Positions 27,632 through 61,054 of a DNA stretch of 61,540 nt are shown here, piece after piece. The position numbers and the translations under genes were made by a program. Below the pieces are notes generated by a model. It was not told the DNA's origin. It was given only the letters and a program-made list of their open reading frames with translations, and made no database searches. Source of the DNA: a virus (taxonomy: Duplodnaviria > Caudoviricetes); IMG/VR virus record IMGVR_UViG_3300031379_000001, positions 1-61,540 of that record. One strand, written 5' to 3'. The stretch's first letter is position 1. Each line of letters starts with the position of its first letter.

Positions 27632-27898
27632 ATGTCAATTACAGTTAAAAACGAATATAATTTAAATCCTGTATATATTAGAAAATTGGTACAACAAAAA
27701 GGAATTAATAAAAACGATTTAATGCAGTTGTTTGGCAAAAGTCAAGCAGCAGTTTACGCTAGGTTAAGTGGTGCTAAAATTATGACAATCGAAGAAGGAT
27801 TTAAACTAGCTAATTTATTAAATATAGATATTCATAAGGTATTTGCACCAAGTCAACAAGATATAATAGATGTATTATGTAATAATAAGGTGGTATAA
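27632..27898 (+). CDS. XRE-family HTH regulator
   Basis: KGINKNDLMQLFGKSQAAVYARLSG...LANLLNI. Confidence 0.8.
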   Translation: MSITVKNEYNLNPVYIRKLVQQKGINKNDLMQLFGKSQAAVYARLSGAKIMTIEEGFKLANLLNIDIHKVFAPSQQDIIDVLCNNKVV

Positions 27899-29596: not shown

Positions 29597-29749
29597 CTAT
29601 TCACCTTTCTTTTTATTTGCATTTTCTATGTATTTCTTCATCATCTTAATAATTTCATGTGACATATTTCTTCCATCACATGCAACTCTAAATTCTTCTT
29701 TTAACTGATCGCCTGTTATTACAACTAATCTAGCTTTATTCTTACTCAA
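29597..29749 (-). CDS. 50-aa ParG/Arc-like RHH protein (below ORF-track cutoff)
   Basis: TTG start after AAGGAG; MSKNKARLVVITGDQLKEEFRVACDGRNMSHEIIKMMKKYI; promoter at 29781-29809. Confidence 0.65.
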   Translation of the reverse strand: MSKNKARLVVITGDQLKEEFRVACDGRNMSHEIIKMMKKYIENANKKKGE

Positions 29750-30000
29750 TTTGATCACTCCTTATTTTTATTATGTATACATATTATCATAGATATTAAC
29801 CAATGTCAATATTTATATTAATTAATGTTAATAATTATAATAAGAAAACAAGGTATACGTAGGTGTATACCTTGTTTGCTTGAATGTACATTTAAGTACA
29901 TTTAGGCTTCTAATGTACTCATTAGTGTATATTCTGGATTTTAGTATAATTTTATGTTATAATGATAATGTAATTAATTTTTGATAATTTATTGTTAATT

Positions 30001-32346
30001 TCATATATTCAAAGTATCTTGATATTCTGCCAAAATATCTTGTTTAATTCTTAATCCAGCTAAACCTCTTGCCGTAGGTTTTTTTGTTTTAGGATTTATT
30101 AAATTTTTACTTTCTTTAATATCTTTAAACTTTGAAGATATTTCATTTCTTAATTGTACACCAGTTTTTTTACATTTAATATTTTCTTCATTACAATACA
30201 TTTTGTAATAGCTTAGTAAATCACTGCCAAGTATATAACCATTTTTAGTTACTTCACAATATTGATCAACAAAATCTACTACAGGACTATCTTGTTTAAT
30301 ATAGTCTTTTATAATATTTTCATTTTCTTTATTTGTAGTAAAGTTTAAATTATTTTTCATAAGTCTCAATAGACCTTCAAACATCCAATTAAAAATAGCA
30401 TCATAATTAAATTTTTCTAATAATTTCTTATCTTGTTTTTCTTTAGGTACAACATTATTAAATGGTATAATTATAAATCTATTAAAAAATTCTTGTGATT
30501 TATCATAAGAACTAGGTAAATGATTCATACTAAAATACATCCTAGCTTTATTGTATACAAATATAGAATCTCTACCTTTTTTCTCACATTTAAATTTATC
30601 ATCACCAGTTAATATTTTAATTGAGCTTGTGTCTTCTAATGGTGTGGCTGGTATGTCACCACACACATTTATTAATTTACCTAATAATGCGGAAGTATCA
30701 AATCTTGAATTTCTTCTTGTTAAATCTTGTAATGGTAATGCAGAGGTATTATCATCACCGATAACATTAGTAAGTATTCTAAGTACTACCGATTTACCAG
30801 TATCACCTTTACCATAGAAACCAAAAAACTTTTTTGCTCTATTGTTATTAATTAAAGCATATCCCATAATTTCTTGTAATAAAATTTGTTGATCTTTTGG
30901 TAATGTTTCATTTATAAATTTCTCAAAAACTTCACATTTAGCATCTGGATTATATGTGAATTTATATTGAATAGTATTTAAGTTATCTGGTGAATGTTCT
31001 TCTTTAGTAAATTCAGAAGAACCATATTTAACATTTAAAATACAATCATTTAAATTAATTTGTGTATCTGATGTATTGAATTTTTCAAACTTTATAAAAT
31101 GCCTTTGTAATTGTTTGTAAACTTCATCTACATAATGAGTGGATTTAAACTTATTTTTTTCATTATCTATCATATGATTTTCAATTAACTTTGTTAACTG
31201 TGGTTTTTCTATCTCATTATATGTACCATTTTTATAAATAAATGACCCAATTTCAGTATGTATAATATTATGTTCATTTGTTAAATGATTCCTTAATACA
31301 GTGAAATCTAATTGATATTTATCTTTATTGTTTAAATAAAACCATTCTTTCGATAAAGCTTTGTTTTGTGCTTCAAAGTCTATATTTAATTTAAACATAT
31401 CATTTAGTTTAACAACTGCTTTGAATGGTTCTATATCTTCCATTAAAGCAACAAAATCAATTACACTACCGCCTTTTTCACATCCAAAACAATTAAAACT
31501 ATTAGTTGTTTCATAAATACTCATACTTGGTGTCTTGTCTTCATGTTCTGGTAATGGGCAGTTAATAAGAGTGCCATTATAGTCAATTCCATATTTGTTT
31601 AAAAGATCAATTATATCAATTTCACTTTTAACATAATCAAATATATTACTAATATCTTCTTTGTTAGTTTCAGTGTTTCTATCATATTTAGTTTTTACTT
31701 TTTTTACATCTATCTTTTTTAATAGTTCGACTTTTTTGTATAGATTTACTATCGTCCTATTGGCTTCTGGTAGTTCATCACATTTATAATCTTCATATAC
31801 ATTGCCTGTTAATATCATACAATGTTTATTTATGAATACTTCTACACCGCATTTTTGTGGTAAATGTGAATATTTAGAATGTACTTTATGTAATTTAACA
31901 CTTTGATTATTCTTTTTATTAAATGATTTTGTTGTCTTATATATAATGTGTAAACCATAACCACTAATAGAGTATTCTATATATGGTCTAATATTTTCTA
32001 TATCTAAATCATTTAATATCTCTTTTGCCCAAGTATATAAATTTTTTTCTTCATCAAAGCATTTATCTAAATCAATGATTACATAGTCATTATCAAGAAA
32101 ATAACTATAATATAGGTTATTAGGATTATCAGTTATAACACTTACAAATGTCTTTAGATTATTTTTATTGGTCCAATCGACATTATAACCATTAACATCA
32201 ACTGGTGCTTTTTTAGAATTACCATATAACCATTGATTTTTATCTTTTATTTCTTTAGGTATATTATGTATTTTTGCATTATCAACGTTTAATACTTCTT
32301 TTAATTGATTATTCTGCATATTAGTTACATTATAAGCATTTTTCAT
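30001..32346 (-). CDS. Primase-helicase: AEP-like primase + CHC2 zinc finger + D5/P4-type SF3 helicase
   Basis: IIDLD and SISGYGLH primase motifs; CPLPEHEDKTPS...CFGC; Walker A GKGDTGKS; IKILTGDD; MNHLP; FFNRF. Confidence 0.9.
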   Translation of the reverse strand: MKNAYNVTNMQNNQLKEVLNVDNAKIHNIPKEIKDKNQWLYGNSKKAPVDVNGYNVDWTNKNNLKTFVSVITDNPNNLYYSYFLDNDYVIIDLDKCFDEEKNLYTWAKEILNDLDIENIRPYIEYSISGYGLHIIYKTTKSFNKKNNQSVKLHKVHSKYSHLPQKCGVEVFINKHCMILTGNVYEDYKCDELPEANRTIVNLYKKVELLKKIDVKKVKTKYDRNTETNKEDISNIFDYVKSEIDIIDLLNKYGIDYNGTLINCPLPEHEDKTPSMSIYETTNSFNCFGCEKGGSVIDFVALMEDIEPFKAVVKLNDMFKLNIDFEAQNKALSKEWFYLNNKDKYQLDFTVLRNHLTNEHNIIHTEIGSFIYKNGTYNEIEKPQLTKLIENHMIDNEKNKFKSTHYVDEVYKQLQRHFIKFEKFNTSDTQINLNDCILNVKYGSSEFTKEEHSPDNLNTIQYKFTYNPDAKCEVFEKFINETLPKDQQILLQEIMGYALINNNRAKKFFGFYGKGDTGKSVVLRILTNVIGDDNTSALPLQDLTRRNSRFDTSALLGKLINVCGDIPATPLEDTSSIKILTGDDKFKCEKKGRDSIFVYNKARMYFSMNHLPSSYDKSQEFFNRFIIIPFNNVVPKEKQDKKLLEKFNYDAIFNWMFEGLLRLMKNNLNFTTNKENENIIKDYIKQDSPVVDFVDQYCEVTKNGYILGSDLLSYYKMYCNEENIKCKKTGVQLRNEISSKFKDIKESKNLINPKTKKPTARGLAGLRIKQDILAEYQDTLNI

Positions 32347-32358
32347 TCTTATACCTCC

Positions 32359-32562
32359 TTATTTAACATTTGTTTTTCTACAATCACAATCATCTTTTAA
32401 TACTAATTTATCAAAATTATCTATTAAATACTCTAATACTGTTGTCATACTCTTACCTTGTTGTTTAGATATTTTTTCTAATTGTTCTATTGTTTTAGGA
32501 TAAAATTTGTAAGATACCATTTTTTTCTTAGGTTTATTTGAAACTATTTTTAAATAAGCCAT
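32359..32562 (-). CDS. RHH/CopG-like regulator
   Basis: VSYKF strand then QLEKISKQQGKSMTTVLEYLI; own promoter TTGACT-17-TACAAT at 32605-32633. Confidence 0.65.
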   Translation of the reverse strand: MAYLKIVSNKPKKKMVSYKFYPKTIEQLEKISKQQGKSMTTVLEYLIDNFDKLVLKDDCDCRKTNVK

Positions 32563-32922
32563 TTTTTGTTACCTCCATATATTTTATTATTTTTCGATAA
32601 TACTATTGTATATTAGTATATACTAAAAGTCAATAACATTCGAATGATATTTATCGTTAATACTTTAACAATTAGTGATATTGGTAATTACAAGAAATTT
32701 TATTATTACGTATTTACATTAATATAACTATATGATAATATATATTTATGATGAGTTTTCTAAAAAATCTTGATATGGTTATATAAAAAAAAGAAGATGG
32801 TTCTCTTCTTTTTTTTATTATTATACAAAAATATATTAAATATTCAGAAAAATTATGGAAAAATAGACAATAATGTGATAGTATAAATTAGTCAAAATAA
32901 TACAATAAATGGAGGAAAGAAC

Positions 32923-34134
32923 ATGAAAAAAGTCACAATATTGTTAACAATTGTTACATTATTAACTTTTAGTACTTCTGTTTTTGCTACAGATCAAAGT
33001 AATTCAAATACTAATAATCAATCCAATTCAAATACATATGGTACAACTAATCAATCTAATAGTAATAATAATGATCAAAGCAATAGTAATTCAGTTGGTA
33101 CAGCTAAACAAAGTAATGATAATAAAAACAATCAAGAGAACGAAAACAAATTTGGTAAAGCTAATCAATCTAATAAAAATAGTAATACCCAAGAAAATAA
33201 GAGCAAACTTGGTATAACTAATCAATCTAATAGTAATAATAATGATCAAAGTAATAGTAACTCATTTGGTAAAGCTAATCAATCTAATAGTAATAATAAT
33301 GATCAAAGTAATGTAAGTAAGTTTGGTAAAGCTAATCAATCTAATGAAAACAATAATGAACAAAGTAACACTAATATAGGCGGTAAAGTAAATCAATCTA
33401 ATGAAAATAGTAATACTCAAGAAAATAGTAACTCATTTGGTAAAGGTAAACAAACTAATAGTAATACTAATGAACAAAATAATACGAATAAAACATTATA
33501 TCTAAAAAAATATGAAGTAAAGAAAAATGATTTAAAAGTAGAAAAATTCAAAATAGAAACAATTAAAAAAGAAGGAAAAAAAGCTAAAGTATTCATTAAA
33601 TTATATGGTAAAAAATTTGGTAAATGTGTAATCAATAAAGATGTTAAATTAAAAAAAGGATTAAATAAAGTAAAGTATGAAGTAATAAAAGAAGGTCAAA
33701 AATATATTAATTATATTAATATATATTCAGATGTAGAAAATTTATTATGTAATGTTCAAACTAATATCAATGAAAACAATCAAACTAATGTAAACTATGG
33801 TTCTAATGTAACTCAGTCAAATTCAAATAGTAATAGTCAAAGTAATACAAATAATAGCTCAAGTTCAAATACAACAGTTAGTACAACTACAGGAACAGAA
33901 TCAACCACAGTAACAACTACAGGAAATGAAGAAAAAGAAGTAAAAATAGAAACAACTAATCTAAGTGCTAATGGTATTTTAGCAGATAAAGCATCAACAG
34001 ATGTTAAAACTGTTTCAAGTAATGATACATTACCAAAAACAGGTGATGAAGTACCAGTATTACCATTCGTTATAGGTTCTTTAATTTTATTAGGTGGAGT
34101 AAGTTTACTATTAAAAAAAGTTTTAATCAATTAA
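32923..34134 (+). CDS. Sortase-anchored surface protein with 19-aa Q/N repeats
   Basis: Signal peptide ending VFA; about 9 repeats like NQSNSNNNDQSNSNSFGKA; Ser/Thr stalk; LPKTG + TM + KK. Confidence 0.9.
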   Translation: MKKVTILLTIVTLLTFSTSVFATDQSNSNTNNQSNSNTYGTTNQSNSNNNDQSNSNSVGTAKQSNDNKNNQENENKFGKANQSNKNSNTQENKSKLGITNQSNSNNNDQSNSNSFGKANQSNSNNNDQSNVSKFGKANQSNENNNEQSNTNIGGKVNQSNENSNTQENSNSFGKGKQTNSNTNEQNNTNKTLYLKKYEVKKNDLKVEKFKIETIKKEGKKAKVFIKLYGKKFGKCVINKDVKLKKGLNKVKYEVIKEGQKYINYINIYSDVENLLCNVQTNINENNQTNVNYGSNVTQSNSNSNSQSNTNNSSSSNTTVSTTTGTESTTVTTTGNEEKEVKIETTNLSANGILADKASTDVKTVSSNDTLPKTGDEVPVLPFVIGSLILLGGVSLLLKKVLIN

Positions 34135-34163
34135 AAAAGACTTATTTATAAGTCTTTTTTTTT
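34133..34163. terminator. Bidirectional terminator
   Basis: AAAAAAGACTTAT-TT-ATAAGTCTTTTTT between convergent genes. Confidence 0.8.
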
Positions 34164-34168
34164 AATTG

Positions 34169-34486
34169 TTATATGTATGTTCCTATTATTTTTTTATCGT
34201 CTGTCTCATTTCTACCAATAAACCACATACATTCTGGAATATCATTTGTTAATTGTTTTATTGTTTTACTTATCATAATATATGGTGTACATTTATTATT
34301 AAAGAATAATCTAGCTACAAAGTACCCATAGTAATCTTTTGTTTCATTGTTATATATGGTTATTATGGGTATTTTAGATTCATAATTATATTTTTTAGTT
34401 AAATTGATTAACCTAAAATCTTTAAATGAATCTAATAAAATATCATCATCTTTCCTATAAGGGTTATAAAATTTTTTTAATATCAT
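34169..34486 (-). CDS. Hypothetical protein
   Basis: AAGGAG RBS. Confidence 0.6.
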   Translation of the reverse strand: MILKKFYNPYRKDDDILLDSFKDFRLINLTKKYNYESKIPIITIYNNETKDYYGYFVARLFFNNKCTPYIMISKTIKQLTNDIPECMWFIGRNETDDKKIIGTYI

Positions 34487-34500
34487 AATTAATTCTCCTT

Positions 34501-35787
34501 TTATTTTATTATTTTAAATTTATCTTTGTTATCTATTTGTATTCTTTCTAACCTTTTGTTTTCATTTAATTTAGCACTAGTTAAATTATTAATAATTTTG
34601 TCCTTCCATAATCTATCTTTTATATTGAACTCTTTTTTTAATTGTCCTACTTTTATTAAATCACCACTTTTATATTTAAGGACAATATATTCATCTATAT
34701 TTTTAATCAAGTCCTCAAGTCCTAAATTTATTTTGTCCTGTGTCCTAAGTTTAATTTTGTCCTCACTTATTATATGTCCTGAGACATTTTTATTTTGTCC
34801 TGTCTTCATGTCCTGTGTTTGTTCTTTAATTTTGTCCTGTGTCCTAAGTTTAATTTTGTCCTCACTTTGTCCTATGTCTTCACTTTTTTGTTTTGGTACG
34901 TCCTGAATACATTTAGGACTTTTAGATATATCTACCTTTTTAGTAATATTTGTATTAATAGGTTCTATGTTTTTACTTAATGGTTTTAAAGACTTACTAA
35001 GATTTACCACTTTATTATTTATAACTTTGTCCTGAGTTACTATATTATTTTTTTGTCCCAAGTTATTATTAGTTTGTCCCAAGTTATTATTAGTTTGTCC
35101 CAAGTTATTATTAGTTTGTCCCAAGTTATTATTAGTTTGTCCTAAGTTATTATTAGTTTGTCCTAAGTTTTTGTCCTCAATTATTCCTAACTCAATACAT
35201 TTGTTATCAATAAAACTTTTAGGATAATAAGTAACTAATTTAAATATTTTTACTAAGTAACTATTATTATTCAAATTAATTTTTTGTTTAGTAGATATTC
35301 CAGTTATCAAATCACTACCAATTGAAGGAAAATACATACTCATTAAGTCTATTACTATACATGATAACCATATAAGAGTCATATTAGTTAAATTATCTAC
35401 AAGCCATGTATTATTGTTAAGGTTTAAAAAAGGTATGCTATATAGTAAATCTTTTATTACATCTTTCCTTGCTAACTTATCAAACTGATTAAAAAATGAT
35501 ATAGTTGATAATACTGAGATTATAAAACATATATTGGTAAACCATACTATTTTAAAGTAATGTTGTGGTGTTCGTTGGTATACTATCCCTTTAACTATAG
35601 AACCAACTAACACCATAATTTGTAATAATACGATAAAACCAATTACAACTAAAGTCAAATTTTCATCAGTAGTAAGATTAGAAAAAAATGCTATAGATAA
35701 ACCAGTTGATACTACACTAGATAGGATTGATAATAAAATAATAATCAATCCAAAAAATATAGCCATAAACTTACTAAATTTATTCAT
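34501..35787 (-). CDS. Multi-pass membrane protein with low-complexity linker and basic C-terminal (possible winged-helix) domain
   Basis: About 4 N-terminal TMs; NNNLGQT repeats; EDKIKLRTQDKI x2. Confidence 0.75.
   Translation of the reverse strand: MNKFSKFMAIFFGLIIILLSILSSVVSTGLSIAFFSNLTTDENLTLVVIGFIVLLQIMVLVGSIVKGIVYQRTPQHYFKIVWFTNICFIISVLSTISFFNQFDKLARKDVIKDLLYSIPFLNLNNNTWLVDNLTNMTLIWLSCIVIDLMSMYFPSIGSDLITGISTKQKINLNNNSYLVKIFKLVTYYPKSFIDNKCIELGIIEDKNLGQTNNNLGQTNNNLGQTNNNLGQTNNNLGQTNNNLGQKNNIVTQDKVINNKVVNLSKSLKPLSKNIEPINTNITKKVDISKSPKCIQDVPKQKSEDIGQSEDKIKLRTQDKIKEQTQDMKTGQNKNVSGHIISEDKIKLRTQDKINLGLEDLIKNIDEYIVLKYKSGDLIKVGQLKKEFNIKDRLWKDKIINNLTSAKLNENKRLERIQIDNKDKFKIIK
35052..35170. repeat. 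21-bp tandem repeat within CDS (TTTGTCCCAAGTTATTATTAG), about 5.5 copies
   Basis: Read directly. Confidence 0.9.
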
Positions 35788-35805
35788 AATCTCACTTCCT
35801 TTCTA

Positions 35806-36255
35806 TTATCCGAATATCATATCTTTATTAGCTTTAATACATTCTTTCATGAAATCAATTAGTCTAAAATGAAAATCAGTTAATAAACTACTATGTAAGA
35901 ATTCTCTAAAATCAACTTTTTCTAACTCAGGTAAAATTAGTTTCATTTCGTTAACTGTTAGTTTACCTTCAACATCACTATGATTAATTAGATACTTTAG
36001 ATTATTTTTAACTGTATTCCAGCTACTCAATTTAGTACATTTATTACAATCACCATAACACATAATTTCTTTACAAAACCCTTGCATATTATGAATCCAT
36101 CTGTTATCAAATGTATTAAATAATATTGCTCTATATTCAAAAAATTTACCATAATGTATGCCTTTTTTCATACATTTTCTTTCATATACTTTACCTTCTT
36201 CCTCACATTCATATAACAATTTATCAGTGTTATAATATAAATCTAATCCCATCAA
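35806..36255 (-). CDS. Hypothetical phage protein (MGLD...HSD type)
   Basis: AAAGGAGG RBS; MGLDLY...LINHSDVEG. Confidence 0.65.
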   Translation of the reverse strand: MMGLDLYYNTDKLLYECEEEGKVYERKCMKKGIHYGKFFEYRAILFNTFDNRWIHNMQGFCKEIMCYGDCNKCTKLSSWNTVKNNLKYLINHSDVEGKLTVNEMKLILPELEKVDFREFLHSSLLTDFHFRLIDFMKECIKANKDMIFG

Positions 36256-36331
36256 AATTACCTCCTTTGTTCATATGCAAAACCATTGTTATAACTAAGT
36301 TTTGCTTAAAAAATACCTATTTTAGATCCCC

Positions 36332-36469
36332 TTAAAATTGTTCCTTTAAATATTCTTCAATCAATCTAGTTATTACCTTTGACATATTTTTGTCTTGAGA
36401 TTCACAAAATTCCTTGAATTTATCTTTCAATTCCTTAGTAACTAATACTCTTATTTGTTCTGTTTTCAT
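36332..36469 (-). CDS. 45-aa ParG/CopG-like RHH protein (below ORF-track cutoff)
   Basis: AAGGAGG RBS; MKTEQIRVLVTKELKDKFKEFCESQDKNMSKVITRLIEEYLKEQF. Confidence 0.75.
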   Translation of the reverse strand: MKTEQIRVLVTKELKDKFKEFCESQDKNMSKVITRLIEEYLKEQF

Positions 36470-36683
36470 AATAATAACCTCCTTTTGTAATATATTATAA
36501 TATTATATAAAACATTGCAATGTTTATAATAATCCATATAACATAAATACCTTTGACTTATGTGGTTATACTCACAAAATTACTATGTCTTTTGTGATTA
36601 CTTATTCATTTTAAATAAAATTATTGAAAAATATAAAAATTCTTAGTAAACTATAAATAGTATATTAATTAAGGGGAATTTGT

Positions 36684-37010
36684 ATGAATAAATTATTATT
36701 AGTTATAACCAATACATATATACCTGATGTAAATTTTAATGAAAATATGGAGAAATTTAATCCAAATTTTGCAATGGAATTATTAAGAGGGTTTATATTA
36801 CCTATAGGAATACTTATAATATTTGCAATTGTTATTATTAATAGTTGTAAATATTATAGTAGAAACTATATAAAAGGAATTATACAGAATATATTTATAG
36901 GTGCGGTATTAATTATATTACTATTGAAACCTACATTAATATTCCAGCTAGGAGAACAAATTATCAAGGTATTTAGTTATATAATAGGAGGATTTATTAA
37001 AAATGTTTAA
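36684..37010 (+). CDS. Small membrane protein upstream of FtsK-like ATPase
   Basis: AAGGGG RBS; 2-3 hydrophobic helices; coupled to next gene. Confidence 0.7.
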   Translation: MNKLLLVITNTYIPDVNFNENMEKFNPNFAMELLRGFILPIGILIIFAIVIINSCKYYSRNYIKGIIQNIFIGAVLIILLLKPTLIFQLGEQIIKVFSYIIGGFIKNV

Positions 37011-38748
37011 TAGGTTTTTACATCATATTAAAAGAGAAATAAAAAGTTTTAAAAGATCGCATATTAAACAATATGCGATTTATACTTTAGGGTATTTATT
37101 TGTGATTTATTTGTTGGAAGTTTATATTTTCTTTATTATAACACCTTTTATATACTTTGTAATAAAAAGTATACCTAGTTTTAGTAAAGAATTCTATTAT
37201 CATCTAAGGTATCTTAGTATAAGAAATATAAACGAAAAGTTAGCAATAATAAATGTTAGTAAACAAGATGATGAAATAAGATACAAGATGTTAACTTATG
37301 AGCCATTAGAACGGTTAGAAAAGATTAGATCACAGTTAGCAATATATTTTAATACTAATATCCTAGCAATAGAACAATCTAGCAGAAGTAAGAGAATAGC
37401 TTACTTAGTGACAGCTAAAACAGTTAAAAATAATAATAAGAATAAAACAAGATACATATTAAACCAGTTAGCAATACCTAATAATAACCTAGCAATTAAA
37501 GAGAATGATTTTATTAAGCAGATTTCTTTTAATTGCTATGATACTAAAAAGGTACTTAGCAATAAAGATAATATTGCTATGCTGCTAAATGTAGACCCTA
37601 GCAAACTTAGTATTAAACTTAGCAAAAATGTAATTCTAGAGGTTAGTAAGCAAAACGACAAGATATACTATTTACAAGATCATATAATTAGTTTGAATAA
37701 ACCTAACAAGGATTATCAATTTTTACTAGGTATCAATAAGTCTAATGGTGAGTTATTAATTGGTAACATTAAAGAATACCTTCATACACTCATATTTGGT
37801 GCTTCTGGCTCAGGTAAATCATGTTTTTTCAATGTTGTTCTGCAATCATTAATGTATTGGAATGATAAGATCGTATATTGTTTAATTGATTATAAGATAC
37901 TAGAATTTAAACGTTATGGACAGTTAAAAAACACACTATATATTTCAGATCATAATGATACCTTGATGCTATTTAAGGCTTTAATGGCTGAAATGAATAG
38001 ACGTTTTGATATATTCTCTAAACATGATGTTCTTGATATATATGAGTATAACGAAGAGATACAATATTTACCTATGATATTTGTGGCTATAGATGAAATA
38101 GCAGACTTAAGACTCACTAAATCAGATGTTGCAGAAGAAATTGAGGAAACATTTAAAAAACTTATGAATAAAGGTCGTGCCAGTGGAATAATATTTTGGG
38201 TAGCTTGTCAAAGACCTAGTCATGGACAGATAGACACAGATGTTAGGGCAAATTTAGATTCAAGAATAGCATTTAAGGTATCTGATAGTAAAGAAGCATC
38301 ATTGGCTAATGTACCAGATGCACATAATTTAATAAGGGCAAATGCTATTGTTAAATCACAGATAAGCACAAACCAAATAAAAGGTTTATTTATAGATAAG
38401 AAACATAACGAGGTTTTTAATGGGCTAAAAATGAGGGCATCATTTGGGCAACAGGGCAACGTTGTTAACCTAAGTAAAACACCATCAACCATAACTCACA
38501 GTAATGATTTAATTGTGCAACAATTAAAGAAAAACGTTGCCTTTAAACGTGAAGATCAAGCAAGTACTTATATTGACTTTAAGCGGTATATCTGGGATTC
38601 AACGCAATCTAGTGATACTATACCTAAGAACCAGATATATATTGATGCTCTAGGTCTAACAGATAAACAAGTAAGAACTATGAAAGAAAAGTGTCTCAAG
38701 GAAGGAATATTTGTCAAAAACAAGTCTGGTAGATATGTAAGAGTCTAA
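37003..38748 (+). CDS. FtsK/SpoIIIE-family DNA translocase
   Basis: HTLIFGASGSGKS Walker A, LIDYK, EMNRR, FVAIDEIAD Walker B, KGRASGI, ACQRPS, RIAFKV; N-terminal TM. Confidence 0.9.
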   Translation: MFNRFLHHIKREIKSFKRSHIKQYAIYTLGYLFVIYLLEVYIFFIITPFIYFVIKSIPSFSKEFYYHLRYLSIRNINEKLAIINVSKQDDEIRYKMLTYEPLERLEKIRSQLAIYFNTNILAIEQSSRSKRIAYLVTAKTVKNNNKNKTRYILNQLAIPNNNLAIKENDFIKQISFNCYDTKKVLSNKDNIAMLLNVDPSKLSIKLSKNVILEVSKQNDKIYYLQDHIISLNKPNKDYQFLLGINKSNGELLIGNIKEYLHTLIFGASGSGKSCFFNVVLQSLMYWNDKIVYCLIDYKILEFKRYGQLKNTLYISDHNDTLMLFKALMAEMNRRFDIFSKHDVLDIYEYNEEIQYLPMIFVAIDEIADLRLTKSDVAEEIEETFKKLMNKGRASGIIFWVACQRPSHGQIDTDVRANLDSRIAFKVSDSKEASLANVPDAHNLIRANAIVKSQISTNQIKGLFIDKKHNEVFNGLKMRASFGQQGNVVNLSKTPSTITHSNDLIVQQLKKNVAFKREDQASTYIDFKRYIWDSTQSSDTIPKNQIYIDALGLTDKQVRTMKEKCLKEGIFVKNKSGRYVRV

Positions 38749-38825
38749 CCGTATACTCTTAGCTTCATCTGTATACATTGCGACTAATGTAAAACACCAT
38801 TTTATATTAGTCGCTTTTTTATTAC

Positions 38826-39248
38826 CAATTAAAAAAAATACCATCATTTTAAAATAATACGACACCCTTTAGGCATCACTGCCAGAACGATTGGGCATAG
38901 GTCAGGTAAAATTCAGGCACTGTGTATCACTGTCTATAACTAACTTACATATACATTGGCATTTTAGGCTTATTTATTCCATTAAAAAATTATGAAAAAA
39001 AGATATATATAAATAAATAAAATATAAAAAAAATATAAAATATAAATATATATGAGAACTAAACCTTGCCTAAAACGCCCAAAATGCCTAAAGTAAACTA
39101 GTAGTTTAGATTCCAGAGATATTTTTTTGCCTGAATTTATCCACATTTTGCCTAAGTCAACTAGGAGTGATGCCTAGCTATGCCTGAAATTATTTATCCA
39201 CAAAGTTATCCACAGTTTATTTAATATGATGGTATTTTTTTTTAATTG
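38826..39248. other. Origin-like element: 22-bp terminal inverted repeats, AGGCA/TGCCT repeats around an AT-rich core, 3 DnaA boxes
   Basis: CAATTA8TACCATCAT (38826-38847) vs ATGATGGTAT9AATTG (39226-39248); TTATCCACA at 39137, 39194, 39206. Confidence 0.7.
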
Positions 39249-39273
39249 TTATGCAGTAAAAACCTTGTAACTA

Positions 39274-39320
39274 TTGTAATATGTGTTAACTTATGATAAT
39301 ATATACATATAAGTTAACAC
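39274..39320 (+). promoter_or_regulatory. Promoter overlapped by inverted repeat GTGTTAACTTAT...ATAAGTTAACAC
   Basis: TTGTAA-17-TAATAT with extended -10 TG. Confidence 0.6.
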
Positions 39321-39388
39321 TAAGTATTTAAATTAATGCAATGGGTATTACAGTAATGAAGGTTACAATAGATTAAAAGGAGGATATT

Positions 39389-39583
39389 ATGAATTTCGAT
39401 CGTAATGGTCAAATGATTATAGTAATACAGATATTAAAGCATGGTAGGAAAGTAAGTGAACTTAGTTACAATAATCGTATAAGTAATACTAGTATTTATA
39501 ACTGGATTAAGAAATATAAAGATGAAATTGAAAAGCCAGAAAACAAATGGATGTATGATGAACGTTATATTAATGAATTTTAA
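39389..39583 (+). CDS. Small HTH protein
   Basis: GRKVSELS...ISNTSIYNWIKKY; AAGGAGG RBS. Confidence 0.65.
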   Translation: MNFDRNGQMIIVIQILKHGRKVSELSYNNRISNTSIYNWIKKYKDEIEKPENKWMYDERYINEF

Positions 39584-39596
39584 GGAGGGTTAAACA

Positions 39597-41883
39597 ATGA
39601 TAAACAGAAGGAAAATAGATGAATTAAAGAAAGTCATTGAAGAATTATCACATGTAGGGTATCTGAATTGCAAGAATAATACAAATTTAAACATGATTAC
39701 AAGTAATAAGACTATGGTAGATTCCAACTTAATTGTATTAAGCCTAGAGAACACAAGATTGATTGATGAATACATTAATAAAAACATTCAGACTTTAATA
39801 AATCTAGCTTATTATTTGGAGGAAAAAGCTAATGGATAAGTTTGACAAAGATAAACTAAGGCATTTAGAGAACTTATTGATAGCAGATATCGTTTATTGC
39901 ACTATAGTATTTGCAATAATGATAGCACTATTAATAAAAATACTGAATAAATAAGGAGGACAAAGAATAATGAGTAATATAGTAAAATCAATAATTCAAA
40001 AGTATCATTTTAGAAAAGCAGTTAATTCAATAAATAATAAGTTAAATAATATGAATGATGAAGATAAAAATCAATATTTAGATCATATTAATAGATTAAA
40101 TAATATGAATGATGAAGAATTACAAGAATACTTAAGGAGGAAAAAGATAATGAATAATAAAAAAGATGAACAAGTAAAACCACATAAGAATAATATGGAT
40201 TTATTAGACCCACATGGATTTTGGGCAAAATTTTCAGAATTTGATGATGATAATCAAAAAAAACAGGAGGACAAAGAATAATGAGTAATATAGTAAACAC
40301 TTTAATTCAAAAAGGAATATTATATTTTGTTAAGAAAAATAAATATATATGCGTTTACAGAGATTGGCTTTTAATTATTGTAGGTACGGATGAAGAAAGA
40401 GAATTCCAGTTGTATTTTAAAAGTGTACTTATTAATACAGAGTATACGTGGAATGAAAAGTTTACTTATGAAACCAATGATTTTGAGGAATTACTAGATT
40501 ATATAGTTTATTAATTGGAGGGTTTAACAATGGAATTTAATCATTTAAAAAAAGAATTTCAAACAGATTTAGAAAAACTGATAAATAAACATAGTGTAGA
40601 TAATGATTTAAATTTATCAGATCGAATAATAGCAGAATATTTAATTCAAGAAATACATAATTTAAGATTATTAATTAGTAAGTACAATCGTGAAAACAAT
40701 GAATCACAGGATATGACTTTAAAAGAACTATGGAAAACTATATAAAGGAGGATTTATGGAATTTAACAATTTAAAAAAAAGAACATCAATGGGATTACTT
40801 AAATTAGCTATAAATAAAATAAATGCTAAATTAGAGAAAATGAGTGAAGAAGAAAGAGAACAATATATGAATGATGTAATTAAGAAATTGGAGGGTTCAG
40901 AGAATGTCAGATAAATTAGAGGACTTAAAAGATTATTTAGAACGACAATTAAAACAAGCTCAGGAATCAGTTTTAGAATGTGCTGAAAGGTTAGATAAAT
41001 TCACTAATAAAAAAGGTGAATGGGATGATATTTATGATCATATGTGCCAAGGAGAAATAGAGAAAGAACTAAGTTATAAAAGGGAAAAAGTAAACGATTT
41101 AAAACAAGAGATAGAAAGGTTAGAAAATGAATGAAAATAATATTGATATTTTAAAAAGTGATTTATTAATCGTTAAACAGCAGTATGAGGAATTAATTTC
41201 ATATGATAAAGGATTCAAGGATAAACAAGAGTTACAAGAGTATTATACAAAACTAGGAGAGCTAAGTATTACTATTAAACAATTAAATGAACAAATAGAA
41301 GAATTGGAAGGTGATAACAAATGAATAATAATATTGATTTAAAAGGTAAAACAATTAAAGATATGAAAGTTAAATATGATGATAATAAATTAATTTGTAT
41401 AATATTAGATTTCACAGATGATACAAATATATCTATATCACCTTATGATAATGATGATTTTTTATTTATCACAAAGTTATCAATATCATCCACGAAATTA
41501 GCTAATTTAGAAAAAAATTTATTAATACTTAAAGATCAATATATAAAAGATAGAGTTAAATATAATGATTTTGTTGATAGATCATACCCTGACAATATAG
41601 ATGATTTAAGATATAGAAGTCAATGGATTAGTAATTTAATGCAGCAACAAATTAAAATAGAAGACATAGAGAATCAAATAAAAGAGTTAGAAGGTGATAG
41701 TAAATGAATCTTGAAAAAATGGAAAAGTTATTATCTGAATCAATCAATAAATTAAAAGAATTAGATATTAATTATTTAGATTTAGAAAAAAGAGATATGA
41801 AAGATATAACTAATGAGGTGGTTATTGATTTAGTCGTTGTAATAATGGAAATACAAAATAAGTTATATTTTGAAAGGAAGTGA
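39597..41883 (+). CDS. Cluster of about 10 small, mostly coiled-coil hypothetical genes (39597, 39832, 39970, 40281, 40530, 40756, 40904, 41127, 41321, 41704)
   Basis: Tightly packed co-oriented ORFs with GGAGG/GGTG-type RBSs. Confidence 0.65.
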
Positions 41884-47316: not shown

Positions 47317-49980
47317 ATGGATATTAAAGATATTAAATATAATATTATAGATACTGAGTGTCTATATTATAAAAAAGAAGGTGTAAACACTGGATATTTT
47401 AGTTATCAGTATTTAACCGATGAAATGGAAAAAGCTAAAATATTCGAGTGTAGGGAAGATAAAAACTTTCATACACTTTATAAAGCACTGTCAAATACAA
47501 CTAGACCAATGTATTGTTACAGTATAGACTATGACAAACTTATGATTAACTGTCTTTGTAAGATGGTTGAAAAGGGTATAACTAATATTGCATGGAAACT
47601 AAGAAATATATCAGATTTTATGATAAATGGTGACGTAAATTTCTTTCAATTAAATAAAGAGTTTTGGGTTGATATTTACTTCAAGAATCAAGATTCTTTT
47701 GATGGTGATGATTTATATCAATGGTCACTAGACCGATTAAAAGAAAATAAATCTGATTATGAAATAGATTTTATTAATCGTTATGACTGGCTATTTGGTA
47801 AATCTCAGTTATTCAAGCGACTAAATATATTAGAGATTCCAAAAATTATGTATTATTACACCATAAGACAAGATAATAAACCAAGAATGAATATATCACT
47901 AAAGAAACTACAGTTATACTATGAGAACTATAATATAAAATTTGATTTCTCTAAGTATATGAATATGGCAGATATAGAGAAAGATGGATTATATGATGAA
48001 TTTACAAAGTATTCCTTAAATGATGTTGATTTCCTTAAACGTTTTTGGGATAAGAAACCTAAAGATGATATTATAAAAAGAATTTATGCAGTTAAAGCAG
48101 TTAAGAAACTAAAGCCAGAATTTGAAGTATCAGAACGTGCTATATATTCAGAAAATAATACACAGTTAATTAATGAGATACTAAAGATTGATAATCCTAA
48201 AAAGGATATTGAAATAAATTATCTAGATTATGTTAAAACTCCATATGATGATTTTAATCGTTTTGCCCAATTTGTAACAGATAATAAAGATATTGAAAAA
48301 GATTCACAATTAAAGAAGTTATATTGTGAAACTTATGAGAAACTATATGAAAATGATGATAAAAAGAAATATGAAGATGGACAAATAGAAACTATTGTTA
48401 ATACTATTGATGAATTAAATATCAATGATGTTATGGTTAAATATGGTCTTGGTGGTTTGCATGGTTCTAAAGAAAACTATATTCAAGATGATTTAATCCA
48501 TCTTGACTACAGGTCACAATATCCATCAATTATACTACAGTATAAAGAGTTATTCCGTAATATAATAAATGTTGAGTTGTATGAAGAAATATATAACATG
48601 CGTAATTTTGAGATCAAACCCAAGTTAAAAGAATTGAAAAAGGAATACAAACAATTGGACCAAGATATAAAAGATCAATTAGTTATAATTGAAAAAGGTG
48701 GTAATGATGGGGCAGATATAGCAGTATGTCAAGATTATTACAAAAGATTTGAAGAAATAGAGAAAGAGATCACAGAGTTAACAGAGTTGGAACAAGGTTT
48801 AAAACTTATATTAAATACTGCTTATGGTCTTATCAATAGTAACTTTAGATTACCAATAGCAAGTAAGAAACTAGGTCGATTGATTTGTTTAAAAGGTCAA
48901 TCAATGTTATTAAATCTTATGTATAAACTTGGTAAAACTGAGATAGCAAATGTTAACACAGATGGAATAATAATTAAAAATACTGAAAATCTAGATATAG
49001 ATCAAATTGTTAAAGATGATGAAGATGGGTATTTTGTATTAGGTGTTGATACCATTGAAAAACTTATACAAAAATCAGTAAATAGTTATATTAAGATATC
49101 TAATGGTTACATGAAAACTAAAGGCGAATTTAATATATCAATTAAAAATGTAATAAATAAACATGATAAATTTATAGGCTTACCGAATGCAATTAGAATG
49201 ATTGAGAAAAAAAGTAATGAAATATATCCTATTTATTTTAATCGTAAATATGTTGATATTCAAGGTCATGAAGATAGTTTCAAAGATAATGCATGGTATT
49301 TAACTGATAAAGAAAATGGTGCAATGGCAATTAAGAAAACTATAAGACCATTAATACTAGGTTGTGAAGGTGAAATTATGTATTTTACAGCAGACAAAGA
49401 AAAGGCAAGAATAGCAGAGTATACAAAATTTGCACAACTAACCTATAATAAAATCATGGAACATAGATTAAGTGATAGTTCTAAGAGTATTAAGTATTAT
49501 AAATACAAAATAGTACCAGATGAAGATCAAGAAATGATAAAAGAAAAAAGATCAATTAAAAGAAGATTAAGTAAAATACTTAATCGTGATGAAATAATGA
49601 TTACTGGTAAACTTGATATTAATAACAATAACAAAGATGTATTATGTATTGGTAATAATCCGATAAAAGAACTAAATAATTACACAATGAGCGATATATT
49701 AAAATCTAAACATGTTATTGGTTTTTATCTGGATAAAAATAGTTATCATATGCTTAGTACGGATAATTTAGAGCAACAAGAATATCTTGATAATTTTGAT
49801 ACATTAACAGTAACACATAAAAACGGTAGAAGGTGCTATATATTCAAAGAATTTGATAAAGAATATATTAATTGTTTTAAAGATGTTAAATATCAAAAAG
49901 GAATATCTATTCCTTTACATACATTAGATGAAACTTATATATCTAATTTCAATGAGTTACAAAGTTTAACTAGTTTGTAG
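47317..49980 (+). CDS. DNA polymerase, family B-like
   Basis: HLDYRSQYPSI (motif A), KLILNTAYG (B), NTDGII (C); IIDTE and YSLNDV exonuclease-like motifs. Confidence 0.85.
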   Translation: MDIKDIKYNIIDTECLYYKKEGVNTGYFSYQYLTDEMEKAKIFECREDKNFHTLYKALSNTTRPMYCYSIDYDKLMINCLCKMVEKGITNIAWKLRNISDFMINGDVNFFQLNKEFWVDIYFKNQDSFDGDDLYQWSLDRLKENKSDYEIDFINRYDWLFGKSQLFKRLNILEIPKIMYYYTIRQDNKPRMNISLKKLQLYYENYNIKFDFSKYMNMADIEKDGLYDEFTKYSLNDVDFLKRFWDKKPKDDIIKRIYAVKAVKKLKPEFEVSERAIYSENNTQLINEILKIDNPKKDIEINYLDYVKTPYDDFNRFAQFVTDNKDIEKDSQLKKLYCETYEKLYENDDKKKYEDGQIETIVNTIDELNINDVMVKYGLGGLHGSKENYIQDDLIHLDYRSQYPSIILQYKELFRNIINVELYEEIYNMRNFEIKPKLKELKKEYKQLDQDIKDQLVIIEKGGNDGADIAVCQDYYKRFEEIEKEITELTELEQGLKLILNTAYGLINSNFRLPIASKKLGRLICLKGQSMLLNLMYKLGKTEIANVNTDGIIIKNTENLDIDQIVKDDEDGYFVLGVDTIEKLIQKSVNSYIKISNGYMKTKGEFNISIKNVINKHDKFIGLPNAIRMIEKKSNEIYPIYFNRKYVDIQGHEDSFKDNAWYLTDKENGAMAIKKTIRPLILGCEGEIMYFTADKEKARIAEYTKFAQLTYNKIMEHRLSDSSKSIKYYKYKIVPDEDQEMIKEKRSIKRRLSKILNRDEIMITGKLDINNNNKDVLCIGNNPIKELNNYTMSDILKSKHVIGFYLDKNSYHMLSTDNLEQQEYLDNFDTLTVTHKNGRRCYIFKEFDKEYINCFKDVKYQKGISIPLHTLDETYISNFNELQSLTSL

Positions 49981-50306: not shown

Positions 50307-50484
50307 TAATAAGAGCTAAAGACAAAAAACAATTGAAAACAACATATCTAATGAAGAACATTACAATATAAACAAAAAAAATAATTAAAAAGTCTTATTA
50401 TCACTATTATTTCTTAATAATTATATCAAATTTTAATATAATTTACTATTAAAAATCTTAGAAAAATCTTAGAAAAAATCCTAA

Positions 50485-50810
50485 GGAAAACCTCATGGAA
50501 TTCCTAGGGAAAACCTCATGGAATTCCTAGGGAAAACCTCATGGAATTCCTAGGGAAAACCTCAGGGAATTCCTAGGGAAAACCTCAGGGAATTCCTAGG
50601 GAAAACCTCAGGGAATTCCTAGGGAAAACCTCAGGGAATTCCTAGGGAAAACCTCAGGGAATTCCTAGGGAAAACCTCATGGAATTCCTAGGGAAAACCT
50701 CAGGGAATTCCTAGGGAAAACCTCAGGGAATTCCTAGGGAAAACCTCAGGGAATTCCTAGGGAAAACCTCAGGGAAAACCTCAGGGAAAACCTCAGGGAA
50801 ATCCTCAGGG
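50485..50810. repeat. 23-bp tandem array GGAAAACCTCA(T/G)GGAATTCCTAG x12 plus about 4 12-bp half units
   Basis: Full units at 50485-50760; T variant in units 1, 2, 3 and 9. Confidence 0.95.
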
Positions 50811-50878
50811 AAATTTACCTTACCAGTATTTTACATTGTCAATATCTTACATTACCAGTATTTTACATTACCAATATC

Positions 50879-59781: not shown

Positions 59782-59962
59782 TTCTTAGTAACTGGCGTTA
59801 TACTATGGTTTTCAATAGAATTCTTAGTAACTGGCGTTATACTATGGTTTTCAATAGGTTTCTTAGTAACTTGTGTTGTTATTGAGAACTAAAGTATTAC
59901 TATGGTTTTCAATAGGTTTCTTAGTAACTTGTGTTGTTATTGAGAACTAAAGTATTACTATA
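59782..59962. repeat. Nested tandem repeats (39 bp x2, 58 bp x2) sharing a 31-bp core
   Basis: Core ACTATGGTTTTCAATAG(AA/GT)TTCTTAGTAACT at 59802, 59841, 59899. Confidence 0.9.
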
Positions 59963-60311
59963 GATACATAGTTTGCTTTAGTACTATTTAAAGCTTTATT
60001 TCCACTATTCCCAGTCTTTATTTAGATTTCTAAGTGTACCGATACAATTTATTGTTAACATATCGTTGCTTTTTGTAAAAACTCTGTAATATTATGTAAC
60101 CAAGTATCTAAATGACATTTTAATTAATAATGTTTCTAATTTTAATCATTTATGATAACTAATCTTACTAGGATATACTAGGTCAAAAGAGGTTTATAAT
60201 TATCTCTTCTGTGTTTATTTAAGTTATGAAAAGGTAAATTGTGTACATAATTGATAACTTTAGATTTGAAAATAGTTAGATAAAAGGTAACTTTTGTTCA
60301 CAACTGACTTA

Positions 60312-60695
60312 CAATTAAAAACAACTATCCACAATATACAGTTTAGGCATACGCAGGCATTCGATCAGGCACTCTAGAACCCTTCTCCCAGTTGAGAATA
60401 GGCGGCATGGCGTTTTAGGCATAGGAAAAATACTTATAATATATATAGTTTTTATATTTTTATAATATATATACATATGTATACTTATTTATATATTCCC
60501 TTTTTCATAATTTTTTATATTCCCACACTATGCCTAAATAGCCTAAAGTATATATAGAGTAGATATAAGAAGGGTTTTCGAGTGCCTGAATTTTGCCTGA
60601 CTAGGCATAATGGGCACTTTATGCATTTTTTTTAATTTTTATGCATACCTAAATTTTACATAGTTTTGAAAATGATGGTACTTTTCTTTTAATTG
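60312..60695. other. Second, inverted and diverged copy of the origin-like element
   Basis: Four blocks match the reverse complement of 38826-39090 in colinear order. Confidence 0.75.
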
Positions 60696-60837
60696 ATAAT
60701 AATTAATTAAAATTTAAAAATATAACTCTAAGTTTACTTTTAACGATATTTGATAATTTATTTATAATTTAGTTATAATTAAAACAATAAATATAAAAAT
60801 AAAAAAAAAATAATTTATTTTTTTTCTTGCCTAGTTT

Positions 60838-60913
60838 TGCCTGAATTATTTTTTTTGCCTGAATTATTTTTTTTGCCTGAATTATTTTTTTTTGCCTGAA
60901 TTATTTTTTTTTT
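60838..60913. repeat. TGCCTGAATTA(T)n tandem repeat x4
   Basis: Read directly; same TGCCTGAA motif as in the origin-like elements. Confidence 0.9.
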
Positions 60914-61049: not shown

Positions 61050-61054
61050 TATAT

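Follow-up and report, generated by a model that had tools for sequence, protein, structure and literature searches.

A conserved phage gene set that may form a membrane-bound DNA-translocation module around an FtsK/TcpA-type motor

The window analysed here is the whole of the 61,540-nt IMG/VR tailed-phage virus record IMGVR_UViG_3300031379_000001, which has a GC content of 21-34% and a CheckV completeness of 100% and is classed as having direct terminal repeats. Between positions 32,923 and 39,248, it holds a group of genes for membrane proteins and an FtsK/TcpA-type ATPase, and the question of whether these genes form a module that moves DNA at the membrane is the subject of this study. A first-pass annotation had listed here an LPKTG surface protein, a protein with several transmembrane (TM) helices, and a ribbon-helix-helix (RHH) gene divergent from a gene pair encoding a small TM protein and an FtsK-like protein; all of these genes lie where it had placed them, and its domain calls hold. 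The window also encodes TerL, a portal, a head protease, a major head protein and a tape measure protein, plus an amidase, and thus (with the CheckV value) has the complete virion gene set that is one mark of a phage-plasmid.

The central gene (37003-38748, plus strand) encodes a membrane-anchored FtsK/TcpA-type ATPase of 581 aa (PF01580, phrog_1358), in the following called the motor, in which an N-terminal TM helix or hairpin and two alpha/beta repeats are followed by the motor domain (~37738-38412), a linker and a predicted winged helix (~38554-38742). The PF01580 model FtsK_SpoIIIE matches residues 246-406 with 84.7 bits against a cut-off of 24 (E 8.6e-24), which makes the protein a member of the FtsK/SpoIIIE superfamily, and the best PHROG family is phrog_1358 (3.2e-43). 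In profile searches of the PDB, the motor family matched FtsK best (2IUS, 6.1e-40), followed by TcpA of plasmid pCW3 (6O1X, 3.8e-31) and EssC/EccC, and in Foldseek the AlphaFold2 (AF2) model of the motor, with a mean pLDDT of 74, was about equally close to FtsK (2IUS, 1.9e-19) and TcpA (6O1X, 9.9e-18). BLASTP aligned the motor with TcpA over the motor domain (3.9e-17) and, in addition, over an N-terminal stretch (2.8e-4). By the NCBIfam model FtsK, the motor is not a cellular FtsK/SpoIIIE (69.7 bits vs a cut-off of 1566), and the domains FtsK_alpha (PF17854), Ftsk_gamma (PF09397) and FtsK_4TM (PF13491), which cellular FtsK homologues do carry, were undetected in it at E <= 0.1.

The position of the motor within the superfamily was addressed with an unrooted maximum likelihood phylogeny of 42 motor-domain sequences (LG+G4; support from 1000 ultrafast bootstrap (UFBoot) replicates), which included one TcpA and two TraB-like sequences as references and took five of 28 weakly matching genome-locus proteins, one of which was dropped for short coverage. 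The window protein and all of its relatives from phages and metagenome-assembled genomes (MAGs) fell on one side of a split with a support of 97. TcpA, represented by a single sequence, paired outside this family with one metagenomic protein, P0075 (UFBoot 93), and a Bacillus phage protein and a Bacillus cereus plasmid protein grouped together, also outside the window clade (support 94). The first-pass annotation had proposed to place the ATPase by phylogeny against TraB, TcpA and SpoIIIE, and in this sampling the motor grouped with none of these references, lying in what appears to be a clade of its own outside TraB, TcpA and cellular FtsK. Because the tree is unrooted and contains one TcpA and two TraB-like sequences, it is read as evidence of distinctness, not of ancestry.

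Relatives of the motor are rare: five proteins on short contigs are 80-92% identical, one on a 62.6-kb contig is 41% identical, a handful are about 30% identical, and beyond that cellular FtsK alone is found; 272 phage records match the motor at less than 60% identity. A search for related loci with the single motor protein found no relative, but alignment-based profiles did find loci. In several distant relatives of the motor (L006-L008, L010 and L011), a word of the form G-V/I-x-N-L-S/E/D-K recurs after the motor domain.

The second principal gene (34501-35787, minus strand) encodes a membrane protein of 428 aa with four hydrophobic helices and a basic C-terminal domain, in the following called the 4-TM protein. 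Its TM domain (35188-35787) is joined by a low-complexity linker, which contains a 21-nt repeat in six copies (35043-35169; NLGQTNN x6), to a predicted winged helix (~34543-34719). The alignment of relatives shows that this linker is hypervariable and of low complexity, each relative having a different length and a different repeat unit. Eighteen relatives have 42-91% identity, several of them on contigs of 38-59 kb, and a search of 1.84 billion proteins with an N-terminal-domain profile yielded no more than 80 cluster representatives (E <= 1e-3). This domain had no match in GenBank phages or PLSDB plasmids and belongs to no Pfam family, and a fold search of the PDB with the 4-TM model, itself of low confidence (mean pLDDT 52), returned no match at E <= 0.001.

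The feature that joins the motor and the 4-TM protein is found at their C-termini. Both C-terminal domains are basic (pI 9.4 in the motor and 9.6 in the 4-TM protein), and AF2 predicts for both a winged helix with the order H-b-H-H-b-b, at residues 518-580 of the motor (pLDDT 80-86) and at residues 357-415 of the 4-TM protein (pLDDT 83-87; the TM part of that model is of low confidence). Alignment of the two C-domain families with hhalign gave a probability of 89.6% and an E of 1.9e-6 over 57 columns, the E value being that of this single comparison, and by this measure the C-domains of the motor and the 4-TM protein are homologous. The suggestion of the first-pass annotation that winged helices might be found in both C-termini is thus borne out by the models. 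HTH_36 matches 12 of 63 members of the 4-TM family, and the motor-type C-domain matches no Pfam family. In relatives, the motor C-domain (~80 aa) is either fused to the motor or encoded by a separate gene for 117-173 aa directly downstream. In locus L043, moreover, a GIY-YIG endonuclease gene (11429-11893 of that locus; 3.7e-11) directly follows the RHH gene of the module, and the C-terminus of its product is 50% identical (E 2e-16) to the C-domain of P0095, a member of the 4-TM family. This relationship fits the description of the domain as a portable, presumably DNA-binding module.

The earlier annotation had connected the two proteins by another feature, the word VVNLSK in both linkers. The word is present, at residue 487 of the motor and residue 260 of the 4-TM protein, but it is weak evidence of a link: a shared 6-mer arose in 124 of 5000 shuffles of the protein pair and is found in 9 of the 1225 pairs among the 50 open reading frames (ORFs) of at least 100 aa in the window, and within the 4-TM family, where the word falls in the hypervariable linker, P0086 as the closest relative is the only one to retain it. 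Whole-length BLASTP of the motor against the 4-TM protein found no similarity (best E 0.29), with VVNLSK not even aligned. As far as sequence comparison can tell, it is therefore the common C-domain that links the motor and the 4-TM protein, and not the linker word.

Directly upstream of the motor gene, and overlapping its start with the 3' end, lies a gene (36684-37010, plus strand) for a small membrane protein of 108 aa with two TM helices. The model TcpD_dom (NF040686) matches this protein with 23.6 bits (E 3.5e-5), just short of its cut-off of 24, and it matches the small proteins of three of ten relatives scanned (L011 with 25.6 bits, above the cut-off; L008 with 19.8; L013 with 18.7), the other seven having no match. 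The proteins encoded directly upstream of the motors can be aligned with each other and with TcpD of Clostridium perfringens; BLASTP of the 108-aa protein against that TcpD gave nothing at E <= 1. The protein is here called TcpD-like.

To find out which of these genes travel together, a motor profile was used to collect nine viral and 31 genome loci and a 4-TM profile to add two more viral records (58 kb and 56 kb), and the loci were compared by gene maps and by BLASTP of all ORFs of the window against all 42 of them. What recurs in relatives is the motor, with a small membrane protein encoded immediately before it, together with the C-domain and a 4-TM protein of 315-415 aa with a similar C-terminal domain. 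A 4-TM protein is present in seven of the nine viral loci found with the motor: a homologue was detected by BLASTP in four (L006, L007, L008 and L010), and the protein is recognizable by architecture and alignment only in three (L002, L003 and L005); of the remaining two, L004 has no 4-TM gene in its 13.5 kb, and L009 is cut inside the motor gene. Both loci found with the 4-TM profile have the motor directly upstream and an RHH gene directly downstream of the 4-TM gene, and a single Clostridiales MAG carries three motor and three 4-TM genes over six short contigs. L043 and L044 were the only loci with an RHH homologue, which in both directly follows the 4-TM gene; none was detected in L002-L010. 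Co-occurrence, which the first-pass annotation had named as a check, was thus observed for the motor and the 4-TM protein, for the RHH gene only in these two loci, and in none of the 42 loci for the LPKTG protein. The conserved core is accordingly narrower than, and partly different from, what had been noted: it comprises the TcpD-like protein, the motor with its winged helix, the 4-TM protein with its winged helix and, in the nearest relatives, the RHH gene.

It could be argued that such a set is a by-product of mosaic phage genomes, in which unrelated accessory genes become neighbours without any joint function. Gene order indeed varies among the relatives, the LPKTG protein and two further proteins of 105 aa and 149 aa are not conserved, and the two principal proteins have diverged to different degrees between the window and L043 (about 30% identity for the motor, 56% for the 4-TM protein). 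The motor and 4-TM genes nevertheless remain adjacent through rearrangements and deep divergence, and the two proteins carry a homologous C-domain, so that we regard mere neighbourhood as very improbable.

The RHH gene (36332-36469, minus strand) encodes an Arc/CopG-like regulator (RHH_9, 2e-6, 28 bits vs a cut-off of 23.4; phrog_3180, an Arc-like repressor family, 3.6e-7) and is the first gene of a minus-strand operon that is divergent from the TcpD-like and motor genes. The divergent promoter region contains a perfect 16-nt palindrome, AAACATTGCAATGTTT (36510-36525), which is a candidate operator for the RHH protein. The word TGCAATG occurs 11 times in the window, compared with 4.8 expected. 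In addition to the RHH and 4-TM genes, the operon contains ORFs for a cysteine-rich protein of 149 aa (35806-36255, minus strand) and, as its last gene, for a protein of 105 aa (34169-34486, minus strand); neither has a family match or a homologue in any of the 42 related loci. On the other strand, a hairpin resembling an intrinsic terminator (38780-38814, plus strand; 15 pairs and a T run) begins 32 nt past the stop codon of the motor gene.

The LPKTG protein (32923-34134, plus strand) has a signal peptide and about eight 19-aa repeats (encoded by 57-nt repeats), and its LPKTG motif is followed by a TM helix and a basic tail containing KK, as is typical of substrates of LPXTG sortases. The anchor model TIGR01167 matches with 19.8 bits (cut-off 15.9), and EF0750_LPXTG (24.7 bits, cut-off 47) and Pfam Gram_pos_anchor (13.9 bits, cut-off 20) stay below their cut-offs. 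The first-pass annotation had counted this protein as part of the module, but BLASTP found no homologue in any of the 42 related loci and, on this comparison, it is an accessory gene outside the conserved module. Because such a protein is encoded, the window implies a sortase-bearing Gram-positive host.

Genes for integration, mobilization and partition were sought in all six frames of the complete record. There was no match to the scanned families of integrases and serine recombinases (PF00589, PF00239), of partition proteins (ParA, PF13614; ParB, PF02195; ParM, PF06406; TubZ, PF00091), or of the relaxases MobT (PF02486) and MobP (PF03432), models for MobV, MobQ, MobC and pCW3-type relaxases not being among those scanned. 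The sole match of the VirB4-like model AAA_10 (PF12846) was the P-loop of the FtsK gene itself (15.7 bits), and Pfam and PHROG scans of 40 further ORFs of the window likewise returned none of these integrase, relaxase or partition families. The observation that no integrase, relaxase, VirB4 or ParA is recognizable therefore holds for all families scanned, and no relaxase or integrase of these families came to light among the hypothetical ORFs; the presence of one there had been named in the first-pass annotation as speaking against its reading. An integrase is also absent from three relatives that are at least 90% complete, and a motif search for a dif-like site, which could serve host-Xer integration or dimer resolution, gave no match. 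The plasmid-type partition genes that would be a further mark of a phage-plasmid are absent. Since both an integrase (in the window and three relatives) and a partition system (in the window) are missing, these results point to a genome that is free in the cell and needs a way to be inherited or passed on.

The likeness of the motor to TcpA, seen in the PDB profile match (6O1X, 3.8e-31) and in BLASTP (3.9e-17), and the TcpD_dom matches in the window and in relatives raise the possibility of mobilization: a TcpA-type coupling protein and a TcpD-like helper could dock the phage genome on a resident type IV secretion system (T4SS) of the Tcp/Tn916 type (MPF-FA). We know of no counterpart in Tcp systems of the conserved 4-TM winged-helix partner, and the motor family lies apart from TcpA in the tree. 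In favour of mobilization, 83 of 144 streptococcal integrative and mobilizable elements (IMEs) possess a TcpA-type coupling protein but no T4SS (PMC5357655), and the oriT of pCW3 uses a winged-helix protein, TcpK (PMC6137059). Against it, the TcpA of those IMEs is always accompanied by a relaxase related to rolling-circle initiators (PMC5357655), and PF02486 and PF03432 are unmatched here. Taken together, mobilization appears unlikely.

FtsK/HerA-type ATPases also occur in defence systems, and the motor matches the PADLOC models SspH (2.5e-28) and mad8 (2e-17) as well as HerA models. The module could thus be a membrane complex for defence, superinfection exclusion or host takeover that acts on foreign or host DNA, for example the injected DNA of a competing phage; in relatives its neighbours are lysis and regulatory genes, a common place for accessory genes, and the PHROGs category of phrog_1358 is "moron, auxiliary metabolic gene and host takeover". 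The PADLOC matches, however, reflect the shared P-loop motor alone: partner genes of those systems were not found, the 4-TM protein, the TcpD-like protein and the other proteins of the module match no PADLOC model, and neither a nuclease nor any other effector is conserved with the module across the related loci. A function in defence or takeover is accordingly given a low probability.

Replication has to be considered because of the surroundings of the module. Downstream of the motor gene lies an origin-like element (38869-39214), which consists of an AT-rich run (38984-39050), DnaA-box words and seven TGCCTRA words (38869-39187) that begin 120 nt downstream of the motor gene and are arranged in inverted fashion around the AT-rich core, two on the minus and five on the plus strand. 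Three of the four exact DnaA-box words TTATCCACA of the window are located at 39137-39214. A paralogue of this element, which can be aligned block for block but lacks the three exact DnaA boxes, is present 21 kb away at ~60296-60712, and 17 of the 20 TGCCTRA words of the window sit in the two elements. The second copy has no ORF of at least 35 aa alongside, except short unlikely ones; beyond it, TTTTGCCTGAATTATTTT is repeated four times in tandem (60835-60911), and the same 2.4-kb non-coding stretch contains direct repeats of units of 39 nt, 58 nt and 89 nt (x1.9) at 59782-59961 and 60914-61085, the 89-nt unit including the palindrome GGAAGCTAAGAACGTTCTTAGCTTCC.

On the other side of the module, a gene for a P4/D5-type primase-helicase of 781 aa (30001-32346, minus strand; TIGR01613, 196.6 bits vs a cut-off of 108.7; phrog_864, 2e-79; Pfam DUF5906, Zn_ribbon_DnaG and D5_N) is preceded by a CopG-like gene (32359-32562, minus strand). 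In phage P4, two sites several kb apart, ori and crr, are both bound by the primase-helicase of the phage. The two iteron clusters of the window recall this arrangement, and by analogy the primase-helicase is the probable user of the origin-like elements. The element was assigned to replication first because it is duplicated 21 kb away, because a P4-family primase-helicase is encoded nearby and because its design is P4-like; the winged helices of the module may use it as well. The origin-like element of the first-pass annotation is thus real, but its inclusion in the module does not stand, as the paralogue at 60.3-60.7 kb and the P4-type primase offer the better fit. Among the relatives, L043 has an element of the same design, with TGCCAAA/TTTGGCA words around a TATATA core, and in L002 and L003 a 7-mer cluster adjoins the primase homologue. 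Apparent iteron clusters in L011 and L013 were rejected, as they are coding sequence of the separate C-domain gene.

Membrane proteins that organize replicating phage DNA are not without precedent, since p16.7 of phage phi29 tethers replicating phage DNA to the membrane. In a similar way, the 4-TM protein could tether replicating DNA and the motor could untangle or move genomes, in cooperation with the adjacent origin and the primase-helicase. The location of the module between the P4-type primase-helicase gene and the origin-like element would be consistent with such membrane-anchored replication or genome organization, as would the HTH_36-type winged helices in 12 of 63 relatives of the 4-TM protein, the primase homologues about 6-7 kb from the motor in L002, L003 and L005, and the comparable iteron element that precedes the L043 motor by 2.6 kb. 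Several observations argue in the opposite direction: in L006-L008 and L010 the module is located next to lysis and tail genes and the locus has no primase homologue, a strong terminator-like hairpin lies between the motor gene and the origin-like element, and the second copy of the element, 21 kb away, has no such genes alongside. We therefore consider this role, too, improbable.

The reading we favour, with a confidence that remains tentative and short of even, is that the conserved core is a phage-specific membrane DNA-translocation module, that is, a pump for the non-integrated double-stranded DNA (dsDNA) of the phage itself that resembles TraB/SpdB2. This degree of confidence applies to segregation at septa, loading of spores and spread from cell to cell jointly and is not divided among them. 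Background for such a pump comes mainly from Streptomyces-type transfer: two publications describe SpdB2 as a pore-forming, dsDNA-binding protein with four TM helices that interacts with TraB, and the C-terminal recognition domain of TraB as binding 8-bp clt repeats (PMC4447253, PMC12857230). One of these sources adds that the TcpA hexamer resembles FtsK (PMC12857230), and the other that a role in the spread of phage DNA has been proposed for the SpdB2 homologues of actinophages (PMC4447253); a third describes, for Firmicutes too, minimal transfer units of the FtsK type whose membrane partners vary (PMC13492992).

The favoured pump would work in the manner of TraB/SpdB2 and would be built from Tcp-type parts of Firmicutes. 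The winged helices would recognize phage DNA, the 4-TM protein would hold this DNA at the membrane and might form a passage, and the motor, presumably as a hexamer, would pump dsDNA over a septal or cell-cell membrane without a relaxase, while the RHH repressor would probably keep the module tightly controlled. The likely cargo would be the non-integrated genome of the phage, and the likely purpose its inheritance, at division or sporulation septa, or its spread to an adjoining cell. Compared with the TraB/Spd-like system that had been suggested initially, the belonging together of the motor and the 4-TM protein and the winged helices have stood up, membership of the TraB clade has not, and the nearest named part is of the Tcp type (TcpD_dom). 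The stronger proposal that a phage of a low-GC Gram-positive host possesses a self-sufficient, relaxase-free apparatus for dsDNA transfer, with the logic of TraB/SpdB2 and Tcp-type parts, must be regarded as doubtful.

It should be noted that a considerable number of observations weigh against the pump. How closed circular dsDNA could thread a hexameric ring has, to our knowledge, not been solved for TraB either. The NCBIfam model plasmid_TraB (NF041214) matches the motor with 50 bits against a cut-off of 800, and the two TraB-like plasmid proteins in the tree group with cellular FtsK (UFBoot 94), away from the window family. SpdB2 itself carries DUF2637, but homology of the 4-TM domain to DUF2637/Spd proteins is not supported by sequence, with PF10935 found in none of 63 family members and an hhalign probability of 0.2% to one DUF2637 protein; the sole link is a structural lead in the ESM Atlas with a TM-score of 0.52, flagged "under the bar". 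Some of the DUF2637 proteins in this lead carry C-terminal helix-turn-helix (HTH) domains, and the TraB-like operon of pSROS01, an actinomycete plasmid, includes a gene annotated with DUF2637. Outside the tandem arrays, which account for the top k-mers of the window, and the two origin-like elements, no over-represented, strand-skewed word resembling KOPS or clt was found, and the cluster of DnaA boxes and iterons beside the motor is not conserved in relatives.

Further observations of this kind concern the way of life of the phage. There is no evidence of lysogeny, and the major head protein, whose nearest cultured relatives belong to ~60-kb siphoviruses and share about 33% identity with it, says nothing for it. 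In a sample from the class to which its one carrier MAG belongs, the 4-TM family matched one of 399 scored genomes, which does not speak for stable carriage as a prophage or plasmid. The region occurs only in metagenome runs (nine listed, one of them near-complete, with 0.97 of the words), and a relative that is 83% complete (G004) carries a tyrosine recombinase. None of the nine runs listed is an RNA run. Weak signs, namely three RHH/CopG genes, an XRE-like HTH, the surface protein and the DnaA boxes, fit carriage better than pure virulence.

Several other features of the window deserve mention. The XRE-like HTH gene (27632-27898, plus strand; 22.3 bits, just below the cut-off of 23) is part of a block of small divergent genes at 26.8-29.8 kb that adjoins the amidase gene and includes a paralogue of the RHH gene (29597-29758); this block is possibly a lysis/lysogeny switch. 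Both ends of the record fall within a single tandem array of a 27-nt unit, with 3.9 copies at 1-106 and 5.7 copies at 61387-61540 (100% identity), and therefore the "direct terminal repeat" may be this array alone and does not decide between circular and linear ends. A 23-nt unit, TCCTAGGGAAAACCTCAGGGAAT, is repeated 14.5 times with 97% identity at 50479-50813, at the meeting point of the convergent gene blocks of the two strands, where the sign of the GC skew is also reversed. The largest unexplained gene (47317-49980, plus strand) encodes a protein of 887 aa without a match in Pfam, PHROGs or PADLOC and with a weak homologue of 272 aa in L043, and a TM2-domain membrane protein (PF05154, 48 bits) is encoded upstream of the terminase gene (2283-3116, plus strand). 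No Rfam family and no tRNA was found in the window, and a nucleotide search with positions 32001-40000 gave no match among GenBank phages and PLSDB plasmids.

As annotations, FtsK/SpoIIIE-like genes are already familiar from phages, and 272 phage records with such genes were matched here; none has a tested function in the literature surveyed (PMC4113786). A limited literature search found no description of a four-part module with a common DNA-binding domain. The motor family now stands as a defined and clonable module of four parts, with a fixed partner that bears the same predicted DNA-binding domain as the motor, which turns the question of the role of a phage FtsK gene into ordinary experiments. 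If capsid-free movement or spore loading were true, phages would have an added route of inheritance, by which the genome leaves the cell either in capsids or as naked dsDNA pumped into a neighbouring cell or forespore; this would be a real conjugative phage outside the actinomycetes and would link phages, Tcp-type conjugation of Firmicutes and dsDNA transfer of actinomycetes. If the module were instead a device for defence or replication, it would still be a new membrane-bound use of an FtsK motor.

A comparison with known systems places the module between several of them. With cellular FtsK/SpoIIIE, it shares the fold of the motor, the best PDB match and a predicted C-terminal winged helix at the position of the gamma domain, but the alpha, gamma and 4TM domains were not detected in the motor, which belongs to a separate clade, and no dif-like site was found. 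The FtsK/SpoIIIE-like genes of Bacillus, Staphylococcus and Mycobacterium phages have phrog_1358 in common with the motor gene, and their products lie outside the window clade. A 763-aa protein of the B. cereus plasmid pBFR_2 aligns with residues 209-578 of the motor, including the C-domain (3.1e-29). At its locus (L045; 193337-197372), the gene for this FtsK-like protein is preceded by genes for hypothetical proteins with two and five TM helices, and it may represent a wider class on Bacillus megaplasmids that combines membrane proteins with an FtsK carrying a winged helix.

The conjugation systems of the MPF-FA type (pCW3 Tcp, Tn916 and ICEBs1) have in common with the module an FtsK-like motor with N-terminal TM helices and, beside it, a gene for a small membrane protein like the TcpD family; in PMC12857230, TcpD and TcpE are described as VirB3-like and essential for the transfer of pCW3. 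LPXTG adhesins and sortases accompany Tcp systems, and the tcp locus of C. perfringens (L046) has a sortase D gene near its tcp genes. However, neither TcpF/VirB4 nor a relaxase of the scanned families was found in the window, TcpC, TcpE and TcpH were all without a match in BLASTP at E < 0.01, and the gene order differs, as tcpD follows tcpC downstream of tcpA in L046, whereas the TcpD-like gene of the window precedes and overlaps the motor gene.

Lastly, the TraB/SpdB2 system of Streptomyces differs from the module in that the TraB clade nests with cellular FtsK and excludes the motor, that the motor stays far below the cut-off of the TraB model (NF041214, 50 bits vs 800), that DUF2637 is found in none of 63 members of the 4-TM family, and that a clt-like repeat was not identified on the window. 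The host of the phage is, moreover, presumably a unicellular, low-GC, sortase-bearing Firmicute and not a mycelium, and the carrier is a complete tailed phage. In its layout, the module nevertheless resembles TraB/SpdB2 in many respects: it contains an FtsK-like membrane motor with a C-terminal domain, which in TraB recognizes DNA; a four-TM partner roughly 400 aa long with a part for DNA binding, in the window a predicted winged helix; a further small membrane protein; a repressor gene adjoining the operon; and, as in the Streptomyces system, it does so without a relaxase.

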